Part shown: positions 1 to 7,825 of the stretch, one piece after another
Layout: every line of letters starts with the position of its first letter
Position numbering within the stretch: the first letter of the stretch is position 1
IMG/VR virus record: IMGVR_UViG_2526164663_000038
Strand: one strand, 5' to 3'
DNA: 13,163 nucleotides
Source: a virus
Taxonomy: Duplodnaviria; Heunggongvirae; Uroviricota; Caudoviricetes
Translations under genes and position numbers: made by a program
Notes under the pieces: model-generated
What the model was told of the DNA's origin: nothing
Seen by the model: the letters and a program-made list of their open reading frames with translations, nothing else
Database searches by the model: none

Positions 1-468
1 ATGCCAGATCAAAAAGAAAGTGAGAACACCAAACTCACTTGTGAAGAACAAAAGGATAATGAACTGGTTTCTCGAGTAATCGAAAATCCAGAGGTCTTAA
101 ACAGGGTTTTGGATAGTCCGCAGGTGCGGGCTATTGTTTGCCAGCATTTTCAGGGGCCTGTTCCGCCACCTTCAATGCTTAAAAAGTATGATCAACTGGT
201 GCCTGGGCTTGCAAATCGACTTGTTGAGTTGACCGAAAAAGAGCAGGCTCATCGCCATAAAACAGTGGCTGATAGCATTGATATTGCCAGAGATGGTCAA
301 ACAAAGGCTTTTTGGTTGGCAATATTGATCATCTTAGCTGCCACTGTCTTTGGCGTCATGGGGGAGACAGTTCTTGCCGGAACTCTCGTTTCAATAGATC
401 TTGTTGCATTGGTTACGGCATTTATTGTTGGAAAACATTATTCTAAGCAGGAACCTGATCAAGATTAG
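1..468 (+). CDS. DUF2335-like small membrane protein (155 aa)
   Basis: ORF starts at window position 1, so the true start may lie upstream. GPVPPP and EKEQAHRH motifs recalled as typical of DUF2335; two C-terminal hydrophobic helices; terminator 9 nt after stop. Confidence 0.55.
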   Translation: MPDQKESENTKLTCEEQKDNELVSRVIENPEVLNRVLDSPQVRAIVCQHFQGPVPPPSMLKKYDQLVPGLANRLVELTEKEQAHRHKTVADSIDIARDGQTKAFWLAILIILAATVFGVMGETVLAGTLVSIDLVALVTAFIVGKHYSKQEPDQD

Positions 469-476
469 TCTCCGAA

Positions 477-499
477 CCCCGGTTGATGCCGGGGTTTTT
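477..499 (+). terminator. Rho-independent terminator
   Basis: CCCCGG-ttgatg-CCGGGG hairpin followed by TTTTT. Confidence 0.6.
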
Positions 500-544
500 A
501 CACTAGCAAAGCAATATCAACATTTTTCAGCTGCATTTATTTCG

Positions 545-1663
545 TCAAACAACCAATTTAACCCATTCCTGACCACGAGTATCGTTATAACGATCGGTGG
601 TTGCCTGGACTTTATGTCCCAGTAATGTTTTTGTATCAATACCCTGCGTGCGGTACAGTCGTTCTGACAGGGAGCGTTGTTCATGAAATGTTGGCGGAGT
701 TTTTCCTGCTGGTGGAGTTATCCCAGCCAGATCCCGTGCTTTGGCAAAGTAGTCGCTCAGGTTGTCTTTACTCATCGGCTTTGGTTGTTTCTGGTGCCGA
801 CTATGGATTAGATATGGACTTAATATTCTGTCTCGGCACCCATCAATAACTTCTTTTAACGTTATCCCAATGGCATCACAGCGTAGTGTAAGCGGTAACG
901 CCAGACGCATTCCGGTTTTTCCCTGGGTGATATGCAAGTGTTCGTTCCACACATCTGAAAAACGCATGTGGCAAATGTCATCACGGCGCTGACCAGTAAC
1001 AATCGCAAGAAGCATTGCGTTACGGATAAAGTGTTTTTCAGGCGTTGCGTTGTAAATTTTTTGCCAGTCTTCCAGGGTGAGCCTGGCTCTAGTTACTTTA
1101 GGGATCGGTTTACGGGTAGCCTCCGGAGGATTCCATCCAGGAGGAACTTCCCCTGCATGCTGTGCTTCTTTATAAATATCAACCCATAATCCACGATTTA
1201 CTCTCGCTGTGCTGACCATGTCTTTATCCAGCCACTCATCCAGTATTAATGCAAAGTCTCTTACTTCCAGTTCTTTCAATGGGTGGTTTCCCAGACGGGA
1301 AACCAGGTATGCAGCCATTCGGGCTTTTTCTTTGTGAGTTGTAGCTGCAATATCTCCATTTTTCAGTCGCGTGTCCTGTATTTTCAGATATCGATCAACC
1401 CATGCCTTTAATCTGATACCCCGACGCTTTGTTGCTGACGGACTTTCATCAATTTTGCGCATGAAATATTCAGCCTCTGCTGCAGCTATTCGCTGATTGG
1501 CTGTGGAAGCGATTTTTTCTGCCTTACCTTTGTCTGTTCCGAGCCCGTGAAATTTTCCAGTCACAGGGTTTTTATACTGGTAGTAAACTCTGCCAGTTCT
1601 GCGATCAAATTTTTCGTAAAGTCCGGCTACGTCAGTGCTGTTTTTTCGTGGCCTCGGTGACAT
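545..1663 (-). CDS. int: Tyrosine site-specific integrase, lambda Int family (372 aa)
   Basis: N-terminal pattern LYEKFDRRTGRVYYQYKNPVTGKFHGLGTDK parallels lambda Int NLYIRNNGYYCYRDPRTGKEFGLGRDR; C-terminal catalytic region with LLGHK and Tyr in TDRY; 5' end overlaps the xis ORF as in lambda. Confidence 0.9.
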   Translation of the reverse strand: MSPRPRKNSTDVAGLYEKFDRRTGRVYYQYKNPVTGKFHGLGTDKGKAEKIASTANQRIAAAEAEYFMRKIDESPSATKRRGIRLKAWVDRYLKIQDTRLKNGDIAATTHKEKARMAAYLVSRLGNHPLKELEVRDFALILDEWLDKDMVSTARVNRGLWVDIYKEAQHAGEVPPGWNPPEATRKPIPKVTRARLTLEDWQKIYNATPEKHFIRNAMLLAIVTGQRRDDICHMRFSDVWNEHLHITQGKTGMRLALPLTLRCDAIGITLKEVIDGCRDRILSPYLIHSRHQKQPKPMSKDNLSDYFAKARDLAGITPPAGKTPPTFHEQRSLSERLYRTQGIDTKTLLGHKVQATTDRYNDTRGQEWVKLVV

Positions 1664-1901
1664 GAGTTAAAATCTCCTTCAGTGCATCATCATCGCCAGT
1701 ATGAATTTCCGGCGCAATTCCTGTTTCACCAGGTCCAACAAATACTGCTCGGCGATCTATCAGCCAACGCCCACGAATTTTTTGTGGTCTTGGAACGATG
1801 TATCCTAGTTTTCCGTATTTCACCAGGGTAGTGTTTGTTATTGGGAGACTGAACCGTTTTGGTTTCCACTCGTCGAGCGTTATCAGGTACTGTTCGCTCA
1901 T
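1632..1901 (-). CDS. xis: Excisionase (Xis-like), about 89 aa
   Basis: YLITLDEW...PRPQKIRGRWLI resembles lambda Xis YLTLQEW; ATG at 1901 has GGAG 8 nt upstream (the track ORF uses GTG at 1910); overlaps int start. Confidence 0.75.
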   Translation of the reverse strand: MSEQYLITLDEWKPKRFSLPITNTTLVKYGKLGYIVPRPQKIRGRWLIDRRAVFVGPGETGIAPEIHTGDDDALKEILTHVTEATKKQH

Positions 1902-1962
1902 GGCTATCACTCCGGAACGCGCCAGTTGCAGAATATCAACGACAACTGGCGGCGGTTGAACA

Positions 1963-2504
1963 TTAAAAATCAGCCTGACTCGGGATCAGTTTTTGCCAGA
2001 TAACTGAAACGTATTTTGCCTGGTAACGGGCGTCATCAAGTGCATTATGGCGCTCACCTTCGAATGGAATAGCCGTTCTGGCATCGAAGTCTATGGCTTT
2101 CCCCAGCTCAACGATTGTGCGTACATCGCGATCGTTGTAGTAACGCCACGGGCAGGGGATCCCCTGCCGTTCGTATGAACGGCGCAAAATCGTGTTGTCG
2201 AAGTTGGCTCCATTTCCCCAGACCTGAACAAAAAATTCACCGGAGTTTTCGTCGATAAATTCCCGCAATTGTAACAGTGCATCATCTAACGGGATTTCAT
2301 CGGTCATAATGGCAGATTGCGCTTCGCGTGATTGCTTAAGCCACCATTTAATGGTGTCCCGATCAATGACTCCGCCAGCAGTTTCCAGATCGATAGTCTT
2401 ACTAAATTCCGGTCCCATATCTCCGGTTTGCGGATCGAAAAATATTGCACCTATTGAGATGATCGGGGCATCAGGATTTTTCCCATGGTTTCAAGGTCGA
2501 TCAT
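1963..2504 (-). pseudogene. DEDDh (DnaQ-like) 3'-5' exonuclease domain, split by a -1 frame junction
   Basis: Exo I motif MIDLETMGK (ATG 2504) is in the frame of the upstream 366-aa ORF; the remainder (PDAPIISIGAIFFD..., Exo II FDNTIL, Exo III HNALDDARY) is the ORF 1963..2418 in the -1 frame; junction at GGGAAAA, plus 2478-2484. Confidence 0.7.
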
Positions 2505-3598
2505 TAGATGGTCACACGTCCTGCTGGTGGATGTGATTTCTTGATGACCGTTCACCTTAATTGGGTGATCTGCCGTCTCGCCAGTTTCATTATCGCTATC
2601 GTGATGCTGATTGCCGCCAGTGTTCTCCTTGTGTGGATGTTCAGCGCCTTCCATTTCCTCCGGATCATCTTCCTGAACTTCAACCTGATACTCTTCATCG
2701 AATGTTTCCTGGTATGTAGCGTCGCCCATCACCGCGCCACAATCAGGGCAGTTGCCGCCGCCGGTCTGACCGCAGGCGGTGCAGACTTTTTCCACTTCCT
2801 GTTGCACTACTGGTTCAGGTAGTTTCGTTTCTGGCTCGTTTTGTTGCGTATTTGGGCTGTTTTGTTCCGCTTTCTGGTCGTTCTGTTCCGTTTCTTGCTG
2901 GTTCTGGTTCACAGAATCGCGGGTTTCAATCCCCTTCACCCATTTCGGATCATTCGGGTCGCTAATCCCTGCAACAAATTCACCACGTGATGCGGCGAGC
3001 AACTGATTGGCGTCAGGCTGGCTGATATTGGCTGCCTGCATAATTTTCTTTACTTCGTCAGCGGTAACTTTTACCGGTTCTGGTTGTTCAGAATTTTGTG
3101 CGGTATTTGCATTTTGCGGTAAACCTGTGTATGTGCCATTTTTTCGGGCGAAATATTCTTCTTTCGTGATTTCAGTAGCCCCTGCAGCCAGTGCCTTATC
3201 CAGACCAGAAAGTTTGTTTGCGCGACCGTATTTTTCGCTATCCTTGTCGGTGAAGAGGAAGTAGAACGGCCCTTCACGCTCTACAGATGGTTCGACTTCC
3301 ACTTTGCATTCGGTTTTTTCGTTGTCCGGAATTGCCGTTTCCACTGCATCAGTTTCTGGTACTGGCGACGAGAGAGTATCAGTTGCGCTCTGATTTCTTC
3401 CTTCATCTTCAAACACGCCCTTTGTAGTCAGGTATTCAGTAATGTATTTGTTCAGTGCCACAGGGTCTTTGTGAATGTCGATCGGACGTTCACGGACAAG
3501 GCCAAAAATAGTCTGGCGGTCGTAGCGAAGGGCATCAGGCTGTTTGCGCATTGATGCCGAGATACGCTTCCAGTCTTCGCGGTCGTTGTCGATAACTT
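2451..3598 (-). pseudogene. Central segment of the large early-left gene: acidic, Gln/Glu/Asn-rich low complexity with CxxC-x7-CxxC zinc ribbon
   Basis: This frame is open from the slip site at 3599-3605 to 2451 and reads straight into MIDLETMG; motif CTACGQTGGGNCPDC; protein-like composition. Confidence 0.6.
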
Positions 3599-4142
3599 CT
3601 TTTTTGCCCAGCGATGGATGCTGCCGTCAATGTTTCCGGCATCCACATCACCAGGCCAGAGAGCGTAGGCCAGTTCGTCATCCAGTGTTTTCCATGTCTG
3701 CTTGTATTCGCGATGAGTGGCAGCAATGACCGGGCTGATTTTTCCTGTTGAATTTTCAGTGTTCTGTTGATTGGCTCTGGCGCGGGCGAGATCAACAACA
3801 GACGTGTATTTTCCGGTTTCCTTGCGTTCACCTTCGCGACGTTTTTTCCAGATGCGCATCTCTGCCTGAATTTCGGGCCATTTGGCACCAGGCTTACATT
3901 TATGCTTAACCCACCCGATGGCATGCAGCTTAAGCTCCGGATACATGGCGTTAACTTCTGGCATTTTCATCAACGCTTCAACGATATGTCCGTCGAATGT
4001 TGCCATGTCTTCCTGCAACAATTCCTGCGCGCTAATCACCATATCAACGGTGATGTTTTCACATGTGTCGAACTTAACCATGACAGCGTTCTGTACTTCA
4101 GGGGCCAGCTTGTCAAAAGTGACGTTCATCGGATCTGATTCA
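3599..4142 (-). pseudogene. Middle segment of the large early-left gene, from the IS junction to the slip site (possibly ydfE-like)
   Basis: Continues the frame of the 5414..5703 fragment once the IS and one TSD copy are removed (..PVET|ESDPMNVTFDKL..); the track ORF 3452..4168 begins with a GTG inside the IS end and runs out of frame after 3599. Confidence 0.6.
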
Positions 4143-5410
4143 TGAGGTAGCCTGAGTTTAACGGACACTCCTTCCTGAAATAGAATGGCATCAGAAGGAG
4201 CTAATAATGAGCAGAAAAACCCAACGTTACTCTAAAGAGTTCAAAGCCGAAGCTGTCAGAACGGTTCTTGAAAATCAACTTTCGATCAGTGAAGGCGCTT
4301 CCCGATTATCTCTTCCTGAAGGCACTTTAGGACAATGGGTTACCGCCGCCAGAAAAGGGCTCGGTACTCCTGGTTCCCGCACGGTGGCTGAACTGGAATC
4401 TGAAATTCTGCAACTGCGTAAGGCGTTAAATGAAGCTCGCCTTGAGCGAGTCGGAGATATTAAAAAAAGCAACAGCGTATTTTGCACAGGAGTCGCTGAA
4501 AAATACGCGTTAATCGAACAATGGCGACAACAATTTCCCATTGAAGCGATGTGTCAGGTATTTGGTGTATCCAGGAGCGGTTATTACAACTGGGTACAGC
4601 ATGAACCCTCAGACAGAAAACAAAGTGATGAGCGGCTAAAACTGGAGATTAAGGTGGCACATATCCGCACTCGCGAAACATATGGAACCCGGCGGCTCCA
4701 GACGGAGCTGGCAGAGAATGGCATCATCGTTGGTCGTGACCGACTGGCACGTCTTCGTAAGGAGCTAAGGCTACGCTGTAAGCAGAAACGCAAGTTCAGA
4801 GCGACTACGAACTCGAACCACAATCTGCCAGTTGCGCCAAATCTGCTGAACCAGACGTTCGCTCCTACAGCACCAAATCAGGTCTGGGTGGCGGACCTGA
4901 CGTATGTTGCCACACAGGAGGGATGGTTGTACCTCGCTGGCATCAAAGATGTTTATACGTGCGAAATTGTCGGCTACGCCATGGGAGAGCGCATGACAAA
5001 AGAGCTGACAGGTAAAGCTCTGTTTATGGCGCTCAGGAGCCAGCGCCCACCTGCCGGGCTAATCCACCACTCTGATCGAGGTTCACAGTACTGCGCATAC
5101 GATTACCGGGTCATACAGGAGCAGTTTGGTCTGAAAACATCAATGTCGCGTAAAGGTAACTGTTACGACAACGCTCCGATGGAAAGCTTCTGGGGAACGC
5201 TGAAAAATGAGAGCCTGAGCCACTATCGTTTTAATAACCGGGATGAAGCCATCTCAGTAATACGGGAATACATTGAGATTTTCTACAATCGTCAGCGTCG
5301 TCACTCTCGTCTGGGGAATATCTCCCCGGCAGCCTTCAGGGAAAAATATCATCAGATGGCTGCTTAAAAAAAGAACAAATGGTAGTGTCCGCTATTGCCA
5401 GTACACCTCA
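4143..5410 (+). mobile_element. IS3-family insertion sequence (IS600-like), 1268 bp
   Basis: Imperfect terminal inverted repeats TGAGGT...GGACAC (4143-4170) and its complement (5381-5410); flanking 3-bp direct repeat TCA at 4140-4142 and 5411-5413; DDE transposase inside. Confidence 0.85.
4207..5367 (+). CDS. IS3-family transposase, OrfA and OrfB fused in one frame (386 aa)
   Basis: N-terminal HTH and leucine zipper (LESEILQLRKALNEARLE); DDE catalytic region (VWVADLTYV, HHSDRGSQY, ESFWGTLKNE); N-terminus MSRKTQRYSKEFKAEAV matches my recollection of IS600 OrfA; SD GGAG upstream. Confidence 0.85.
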   Translation: MSRKTQRYSKEFKAEAVRTVLENQLSISEGASRLSLPEGTLGQWVTAARKGLGTPGSRTVAELESEILQLRKALNEARLERVGDIKKSNSVFCTGVAEKYALIEQWRQQFPIEAMCQVFGVSRSGYYNWVQHEPSDRKQSDERLKLEIKVAHIRTRETYGTRRLQTELAENGIIVGRDRLARLRKELRLRCKQKRKFRATTNSNHNLPVAPNLLNQTFAPTAPNQVWVADLTYVATQEGWLYLAGIKDVYTCEIVGYAMGERMTKELTGKALFMALRSQRPPAGLIHHSDRGSQYCAYDYRVIQEQFGLKTSMSRKGNCYDNAPMESFWGTLKNESLSHYRFNNRDEAISVIREYIEIFYNRQRRHSRLGNISPAAFREKYHQMAA

Positions 5411-5413
5411 TCA

Positions 5414-5703
5414 GTCTCAACCGGGACAAAGGAAGCAGACTCCTCATCCCAGCGGTTTTCCTGCATATATTCAGCATCCCAGGAATCGAGGGCAGGGCGG
5501 GGTATACCGGGTTTATCCTCGCAAACAAGAAATTTATAAGCGCAGTCCTGAGCAGCCGGATAATGTTCCAGGAATTGCCAGTGAAATTTTGCGCGGGCGC
5601 GACGTTCATCACCGGCTTCAATGGCAGTGGCTACAGCGACGGCACCTTCTTCCTTTATTGCCTGTTCGTCCGGAATGGCGGCGCAAATAAAGACTTTACT
5701 CAT
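5414..5703 (-). pseudogene. N-terminal fragment (97 codons) of the large early-left gene, truncated by the IS insertion
   Basis: ATG at 5703 with GAGG upstream; frame runs into the IS right end and resumes at 4142 after virtual excision. Confidence 0.6.
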
Positions 5704-5795
5704 TTTGTTTTAACCTCATTACAGATTTCAGGGTGAACGAATCCCTGCCATTGCTGGCATTTTTAATCCGTTGGTATGCGTTATATGGCTGCGGG

Positions 5796-5984
5796 TTATC
5801 CAGCCGGTATTTCGTTATTCAGGTTCAGCGATACTTTTTTTAACGGGAGGCATTCACCGGGGATTTTTTGTTCGTCCCTTACCTGAATGCAGGATGACTT
5901 ACTGTCATAAATTCCGGTAATCACATTTTGTGGCTCACCCGTTATAAGAAAAACGGTCATCACCAGTGCAAATGCTGAAGTCAC
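5796..5984 (-). CDS. ydfD: YdfD-like small membrane protein (62 aa)
   Basis: GTG start overlapping dicB stop (GTGA), GGAG 7 nt upstream; hydrophobic N-terminus SAFALVMTVFLITGEP and C-terminal EQKIPG...EIPAG pattern recalled for Qin YdfD. Confidence 0.6.
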   Translation of the reverse strand: MTSAFALVMTVFLITGEPQNVITGIYDSKSSCIQVRDEQKIPGECLPLKKVSLNLNNEIPAG

Positions 5985-6169
5985 TGCTGTTCTCCGATAA
6001 TACCAAGTTCAAGAAGGGCAATTCTGGAAAGTATGGAATTATCATTGAGAAGATAAGGTTCATATTTCCTCATCTTAATGGCATCTTCAGTAAACTCCCG
6101 GTTACTGAGCAGAACACCAATATCAAAACAACCTTCAGACGTATTAACGTTTGGTAATAACGTTTCCAT
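5981..6169 (-). CDS. dicB: Cell division inhibitor DicB homolog (62 aa)
   Basis: ATG at 6169 preceded by GAGGA; N-terminal half METLLPNVNTSEGCFDIGV...FTEDAI matches my recollection of E. coli DicB, C-terminal half differs; the track ORF start at 6274 is an upstream in-frame extension. Confidence 0.8.
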   Translation of the reverse strand: METLLPNVNTSEGCFDIGVLLSNREFTEDAIKMRKYEPYLLNDNSILSRIALLELGIIGEQQ

Positions 6170-6396: not shown

Positions 6397-6657
6397 ATTG
6401 ATAACAGAGGGCGTTGCAGCGGGGTTGTCACTTAAGCGTATGGTCAACCTGACAACCCGGTGTCCTCAATGGGGAAGGAATAACCCCGCCATACTTACCG
6501 CCGCGCCATTTCGCGGATTGCCACAACCAGAAGCGCACGGTCGAAGAAATTTAACGACAAGACTTATATGCAAAGGGATCTCGCCGTGCGCTTTCGTGTT
6601 ATGCCCTGACTTTTCAGGGTAAATTAACCTGTGGAAACCTGTTTTTACTGGCGCTAA

Positions 6658-7038: not shown

Positions 7039-7063
7039 AAAAAAAAGGTCGGCATTGCCGACC
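7039..7063 (-). terminator. Rho-independent terminator of the repressor gene
   Basis: GGTCGGC-att-GCCGACC hairpin followed on the minus strand by a run of eight U; lies 22 nt downstream of the repressor stop. Confidence 0.7.
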
Positions 7064-7744: not shown

Positions 7745-7825
7745 ATTGAATATAAATTATTTTAGATTGCATTGACCTAAAAAAATTATCTTGTAATCTA
7801 AAAATACTTAGATTTAGGAGGTAAA
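7745..7825. promoter_or_regulatory. Divergent immunity promoter/operator region (OR; PR rightward, PRM leftward)
   Basis: AT-rich 81-bp intergenic region between divergent repressor and cro; TTGACC (7772-7777) as candidate PR -35; inverted repeat AATCTA-N8-TAGATT (7795-7814) and extra TAGATT (7764-7769), same half-site as OL. Confidence 0.6.

Follow-up and report, generated by a model that had tools for sequence, protein, structure and literature searches.

Two apparent −1 frameshift junctions in a prophage exonuclease gene of Escherichia coli O26: probable homopolymer-length errors in a draft contig

The window, the whole stretch of 13,163 nt of prophage DNA analysed here, contains an exonuclease gene that is broken at two points, each of which has the appearance of a −1 frameshift site. 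We consider it most likely that both junctions are homopolymer-length errors in the draft contig and not a biological signal. Long homopolymers in this contig, AIGR01000022.1, would have been called one base short, and two such shortened runs within the 823-aa gene (A7 to A6 at 3600-3605 and A6 to A5 at 2477-2481) would leave it in three frames. As A-runs are where the bases were lost, the breakpoints look like slippery heptamers, both needing a −1 shift. Independently of any miscalled runs, an IS600 insertion has made the exonuclease gene of this strain a real pseudogene.

The exonuclease gene and its reading frames

The window carries an E. coli O26-type lambdoid prophage adjoining potC, and includes int, xis, the exonuclease gene, DUF1482, dicB, the repressor and cro genes, and replication genes. 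The features considered here are listed in Table 1. In intact homologues, the exonuclease gene is one ORF of 2,472 nt, encoding 823 aa. A Pfam scan of the intact homologue matched PF16473 to residues 642-813, starting at HLMIDLE, with a score of 226.6 bits (cut-off 27) and covering positions 2-177 of the 177 in the profile. In the window, the DEDDh motifs of this domain are split, with IDLE in frame B and NGANFD and HNALDD in frame C. Exo I (D-x-E), Exo II (...D) and Exo III (H-x4-D) are found in one polypeptide only in the homologues with A6 at junction 2. The Exo I residues on the minus strand are the Asp encoded by gac at 2498-2496 and the Glu encoded by gaa at 2492-2490. The catalytic role assigned to the motif residues is a putative one, based on general knowledge of the family and on the alignment to 8KEL.

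Table 1. Coordinates of the exonuclease gene segments, junctions, insertion sequence and homopolymer deletions in the window.
Feature	Position	Strand	Description
Rest of DEDDh domain (Rv2179c-like, PF16473), frame C	1963..2477	−	NGANFD and HNALDDA motifs; stop at 1965-1963
Deletion 2477	2477	+	T6 to T5 (RM8426 to window); exonuclease gene, junction 2
Junction 2	2478..2484	−	G_GGA_AAA on the A5 run 2481..2477; A6 in intact homologues
Exonuclease middle segment, frame B	2485..3598	−	Cys-rich CxxC...CxxC stretch and Exo I motif D-L-E (2498..2490)
Junction 1	3599..3605	−	gca aaa aag = A_AAA_AAG; A6 run 3605..3600
Deletion 3600	3600	+	T7 to T6 (RM8426 to window); exonuclease gene, junction 1
Exonuclease segment, frame A	3606..4142	−	Approximately residues 99-277 of the intact protein
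IS600 (IS3 family)	4143..5410	+	1,268 bp, complete with terminal repeats; target duplication TCA at 4140-4142 and 5411-5413
Exonuclease N-terminal fragment	5411..5703	−	Start codon 5703-5701 and roughly the first 98 codons
Deletion 6471	6471..6474 (run)	+	G5 to G4 relative to three other O26 genomes; intergenic
Deletion 7039	7039..7046 (run)	+	A9 to A8 relative to three other O26 genomes; intergenic, DUF1391 gene/repressor gene
Deletion 7779	7779..7785 (run)	+	A8 to A7 relative to three other O26 genomes; intergenic, repressor/cro control region

On the minus strand, the codons at junction 2 are atg (2486-2484), gga (2483-2481), aaa (2480-2478) and atc (2477-2475), so that the X_XXY_YYZ heptamer G_GGA_AAA lies at 2484..2478 in the zero frame of ORF 2451..3551. 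This minus-strand ORF encodes the 366-aa frame-B product, which carries the Exo I motif (MIDLETMGK) and ends ...RTCDHLMIDLETMGKILMPRSSQ at a TAG (2453-2451), nine codons past atG GGA AAA. The −1 frame reads HGKNPDAPIISIGAIFFD... (...HGKNPDAPIISIGAIFFDPQTG... in the translation) and continues to the stop at 1965-1963; a −1 slip at this point would give back the exact wild-type MGKNPDAP. The initial description of the locus, made from the sequence alone, had placed the Exo I motif MIDLETMG in the upstream frame and the rest of the exonuclease in the −1 frame, joined at atG GGA AAA, and both the codon positions and the −1 translation agree with this. That the motif belongs to the exonuclease domain is borne out by the start of the PF16473 match at HLMIDLE and by the alignment to 8KEL_A, a 227-aa chain named "Exodeoxyribonuclease". 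This is the closest solved chain by sequence, and it aligns from D-x-E across the junction (IDLETMGKNPDAPIISIGAIFFDP in the exonuclease alignment vs IDFETMGSGEKAAVIDLAVIAFDP). The same description had held that the ORF at 1963..2418 lacks Exo I. In the Pfam scan, this 151-aa ORF matched PF16473 profile positions 33-177 only, and it is therefore indeed without Exo I.

Junction 1 has the same origin as junction 2, in that one homopolymer base is missing: the homologues have either A7 or A6 followed by T at this position. It was also correctly noted in the initial description that both junctions fall on X_XXY_YYZ heptamers that need a −1 shift. The sequence GGGAAAA is not enriched in the window, where it occurs five times against an expectation of 2.9 ± 1.65, and at least five copies were found in 32 of 200 shuffles. 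By our own reasoning, the loss of one base within an A-run that follows GGG would create a slippery-looking heptamer in about one third of reading frames.

Homopolymer lengths in the source contig

The window is identical over all 13,163 nt (100%) to contig AIGR01000022.1 of assembly GCA_000250035.2, a draft E. coli O26 genome from 2012. The strain is likely to be DEC10C, an E. coli O26:H11 of the DEC draft-genome project of 2012, as interpolated from the neighbouring accessions in a series where DEC9A-E correspond to AIGK-AIGO and DEC10D to AIGS (PMC5592225).

Outside the IS600 region, comparison of the window with RM8426 over 10,856 aligned nt showed no substitutions, no insertions and five 1-base deletions. 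All five deletions sit in homopolymers, and three of the five are intergenic. The same pattern was obtained against two other public records (L016 and L021). The share of runs that are shortened in the window grows with the length of the run in the reference, from none of 121 runs of 4 nt, through 1 of 52 runs of 5 nt, 1 of 15 runs of 6 nt and 1 of 2 runs of 7 nt, to the single run of 8 nt and the single run of 9 nt, both of which are shortened (1/1 each). Two further independent O26 drafts side with RM8426, one of them being that of BEJV01000100.1, described below. In the other, contig BDHY01000022.1, all five runs have their full length and the sequence is otherwise identical, including a stretch of 5,070 nt at 100%. 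The occurrence of −1 events only, the lack of substitutions, the dependence on run length, the non-coding sites and the confinement to one assembly thus constitute a signature of homopolymer under-calling. We infer that errors in base calling or in the consensus, and not real mutations, account for the missing bases. The sequence-only reading had offered two alternatives for the junctions, errors in homopolymers or recoding. Error in homopolymers is strongly supported; recoding was not supported (see below).

Some features of the contig speak against error in homopolymers as the whole explanation, since they lie outside such runs: a net gain of 4 nt in the IS600 copy, and three 1-base deletions at 5778-5791. 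The latter (GG to G at 5778, AA to A at 5783 and GG to G at 5791) are clustered within a 420-nt patch at 5704-6122 that differs from the sister strains and comprises the region upstream of the exonuclease gene, the DUF1482 gene and part of dicB. The patch is 98.9% identical to the paralogous region of the O26 PPompW prophage (L002), and could be the result of inter-prophage recombination or an assembly chimera.

The IS600 insertion

The IS600 copy in the window shares 99.6% identity with the one annotated in RM8426. It cuts the start codon and about 98 codons (5703..5411) off from the rest of the exonuclease gene, so that no full-length exonuclease is possible, even with two frameshifts. The N-terminal fragment runs into the end of IS600 and then reaches a stop, forming an ORF of 103 aa (5392..5703). 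With the start separated by 1,268 bp of IS600, no ribosome from the native AUG reaches either junction, and hence no recoding could rebuild the enzyme in this strain.

None of the 5,426 complete RefSeq E. coli genomes has IS600 at the same site within the exonuclease gene. In RM8426, 2012C-4606, 2015C-4944 and 2009C_3996, IS600 is found at two other positions of this prophage. Since the sites differ among O26-type genomes, the prophage must have been hit at least three times independently. The 103-aa N-terminal product is on record in two contigs only, AIGR01000022.1 and the O26 draft contig BEJV01000100.1. The IS600 insertion in BEJV01000100.1 is the same as in the window, placing the two contigs in the same lineage, and its homopolymer runs are full-length at the three sites that it covers.

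The disruption of the exonuclease gene by IS600 implies that selection on the gene was relaxed. Homopolymer slippage also happens in vivo, and a gene that is already inactivated is free to decay. The two missing As might thus be real replication-slippage mutations that followed the inactivation by IS600, as part of pseudogene decay in a cryptic prophage. The disruption itself, with its clean 3-bp target duplication, is in keeping with such a history, but real slippage in a decaying gene leaves unexplained why three more −1 deletions, all intergenic, are found in the same 13 kb with no substitution and no +1 event. Furthermore, BEJV01000100.1 shares the insertion but not the three deletions that can be checked there, and five indels without a single SNP in 10.9 kb is far outside the usual E. 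coli divergence, judging by general knowledge of mutation rates. On balance, we consider real slippage unlikely, although the run-length alleles described in the next section lend it some weight.

The IS600 copy has a variant of its own at 4450-4456 (GAGCGAGTCGGAGATATT vs GAGCGAGATATATT in other copies), just upstream of its A-rich slippery run, an A7 at 4463-4469. As a result of the net +4 nt, orfA and orfB are joined in one ORF of 386 aa (4207..5367), and no frameshift is needed. The fused OrfAB reads ...LERVGDIKKSNS..., compared to ...LERDILKKSNS... in the frameshift product of other copies. In the 5,426 E. coli genomes, no full-length match above 95% identity was obtained with a 101-mer spanning the variant, and shorter exact patterns over it were absent from the GTDB representative genomes and from metagenome contigs. 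Neither the 386-aa fused product nor the 366-aa frame-B product of the exonuclease gene was on record in the gene-position collection. The +4 nt may have arisen as an error in the consensus, or else represent a private variant that is possibly hyperactive.

Run-length alleles among homologues

Intact homologues with one more A, and a single ORF of 2,472 nt, are present in the phages Tritos and PhiR42_1 and in the O26 strains RM8426 and 2012C-4606. In a multiple alignment, the window is one A shorter than every intact homologue at both junctions, with the aligned run sequences reading ATGGGAAAAATCC in the window vs ATGGGAAAAAATCC in the homologues, and GGGCAAAAAAGAAG vs GGGCAAAAAAAGAAG, respectively. 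The alignment to intact homologues, which the initial description had proposed as a way of finding the expected run, thus gave A6 and a single 823-aa ORF at junction 2. The alternative raised there, that the MIDLETMG match is coincidental, does not hold, because in every intact homologue, the distant solved 8KEL among them, one frame runs on directly into the other. The IS600 at 4143..5410, the three intergenic homopolymer deletions and the near-universal presence of A6 in finished genomes had not been part of that description.

The gene is carried by about 3,550 of 5,426 complete E. coli genomes, and about 3,400 genomes have the intact A6 gene at junction 2. Searches with exact sequences recovered the A5 allele at junction 2 (89-mer) in 2 of 3,758 RefSeq E. 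coli records. At junction 1, the A6 allele (86-mer) was present in 7 of 3,579 records, while the A7 allele at junction 2 (91-mer) was found in none of 3,445 complete E. coli records. Since the intact homologues have A6 and one ORF, and A5 is this rare, the two-frame arrangement is not conserved. By the same counts of A5 and A7, the run at junction 2 is stable in finished genomes, and we rejected the possibility that it is a phase-variable (contingency) run.

Both records with the A5 89-mer were called "frameshifted" pseudogenes by PGAP. They are DXE55_RS27260, from the O145 strain RM12275-C1, and NMD55_RS11935, from ET791 (L009). They resemble the window in having the A5 allele at the same run, and ET791 also has A6 at junction 1 of the same gene. 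Unlike the window, they represent other strains and prophage copies, with a different IS or none, and NCBI treats them as pseudogenes, not as programmed frameshifts. In ET791, the adjoining xis and int are frameshifted as well, a cluster that looks like the product of an error-prone assembly. RM12275-C1 is a finished RefSeq genome, and its pairing of an IS insertion with the A5 allele argues for real slippage in a disrupted gene. So does the presence of A5 or A7 at the same run in several independent public assemblies: A5 in L008, L009, L010 and L012, and A7 in L011 and L013. Some of these alleles may be genuine variants.

The exonuclease domain appears repeatedly disrupted, by differing lesions, across public assemblies. 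One of them (L016) has kept A6, but has a tandem duplication of ≈145 nt within the exonuclease domain.

Programmed −1 frameshifting

If the junctions were recoding sites, programmed −1 shifts at A_AAA_AAG (3605..3599) and G_GGA_AAA (2484..2478) would yield the full exonuclease from three frames. Real −1 frameshift sites are maintained among homologues, and they are usually accompanied by a stimulatory element, which can be a hairpin, a pseudoknot or an SD sequence upstream. The sites in dnaX and in IS3-family transposases, including that of the IS600 in the window, resemble junction 2 in that the X_XXY_YYZ heptamer is read in the zero frame and the ORF that follows is in the −1 frame. Unlike them, junction 2 is private to one draft assembly and rare pseudogenes, and has no downstream structure.

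In favor of recoding, there are in-frame X_XXY_YYZ heptamers at both breakpoints, a −1 slip at each restores the wild-type protein, and A_AAA_AAG is among the most efficient motifs in E. coli when stimulators are present (PMC4066793). At junction 2, on the other hand, G_GG.A_AA.A is inefficient in E. coli according to the early studies cited by Sharma et al. (PMC4066793), and frameshifting at heptamers that lack stimulators does not exceed about 10 times the background of ≈0.05% (PMC4066793). A7 runs are also prone to indel mutation (PMC4066793). No stimulatory RNA structure was detected in the 88 nt downstream of junction 2 (MFE = −12.6 kcal/mol, z = +1.72). This stretch is less structured than its shuffled versions, 194 of 200 being at least as stable, and the structure after junction 1 was unremarkable (z = −1.03). 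The upstream ORF has no functional start, with IS600 intervening and a second frame break at junction 1; the separation of the start and first 98 codons from the rest by IS600 leaves no translation to recode. Two low-efficiency shifts in series would in any event give a negligible yield. Finally, the runs are in frame in nearly all of the ≈3,500 genomes that carry the gene, and the exceptions that we inspected are annotated as pseudogenes. Programmed frameshifting was rejected because the split arrangement is not conserved and there is no downstream RNA structure at either junction, and we regard recoding as very unlikely.

A related possibility concerns the intact A6 gene, in which the G_GGA_AAA site might work in the manner of dnaX, giving rise to a predicted isoform of ≈653 aa without the exonuclease domain. 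In the intact allele (L004, 2977-2990), an in-frame G_GGA_AAA is found directly past Exo I, and a −1 slip there leads to a TGA two codons on (...MGKKS, then the stop). Geometry is the one point in favor of such an isoform. Against it stand the lack of downstream structure, the weakness of the motif in E. coli, and an A-run whose conservation is not distinguishable from the low overall divergence of the exonuclease gene. We therefore consider it very improbable. If it were true, the sporadic A5 and A7 alleles would be slippage products of a functionally maintained run.

Comparison with related nucleases

The nearest intact relative is WP_000048520.1, an 823-aa protein annotated as "exonuclease" or "3'-5' exonuclease" in RM8426 and 2012C-4606. 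The nucleotide sequence is identical to window positions 1..4142, save for the lengths of two A-runs. The neighboring genes are also those of the window (int, xis, DUF1482 and dicB), in a prophage beside potC. Unlike the window, this gene has runs of A7 and A6, forms a single ORF and has no IS600 inside it; IS600 is located elsewhere in the prophage. It is probably the same gene as ECO26_1771 of the O26:H11 strain 11368.

The C-terminal domain of the window gene, once repaired, has a full-length PF16473 match, as do DEDDh exonucleases of the Rv2179c-like type. In contrast to 8KEL_A, the PF16473 domain here forms the C-terminus of a multi-domain prophage protein of 823 aa. The long N-terminal part of this protein has YdfE/RecE-N-like matches, and N-terminal fragments of homologues match PF06630 (Exonuc_VIII) in a precomputed table. 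The gene also resembles that for RecE (exodeoxyribonuclease VIII) of the Rac prophage in its position beside xis/int and dicB/ydfD, and there is partial DNA similarity to recE of Rac-SA53. The catalytic C-terminal domain, however, is DEDDh (PF16473) and not the RecE-type nuclease, and no RecE-type nuclease domain was detected in the exonuclease protein by the Pfam scan. Several phage records, including L001 and L003, name this protein "exodeoxyribonuclease VIII", which is RecE's name. This label, "exonuclease VIII", seems to have been given on the strength of the N-terminal region alone.

Implications

Were the deletions real, the locus would amount to no more than a triple-hit pseudogene in a cryptic prophage. 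For the reading of such genes, the case carries a caution: single-base under-calls in A/T runs automatically create in-frame slippery heptamers, with the −1 frame taking over beyond them. In this way, drafts that contain homopolymer errors mimic programmed frameshifting. The mimicry here was close, since A_AAA_AAG and G_GGA_AAA both give back the wild-type protein after a −1 slip, but it disappeared once near-identical genomes were compared.
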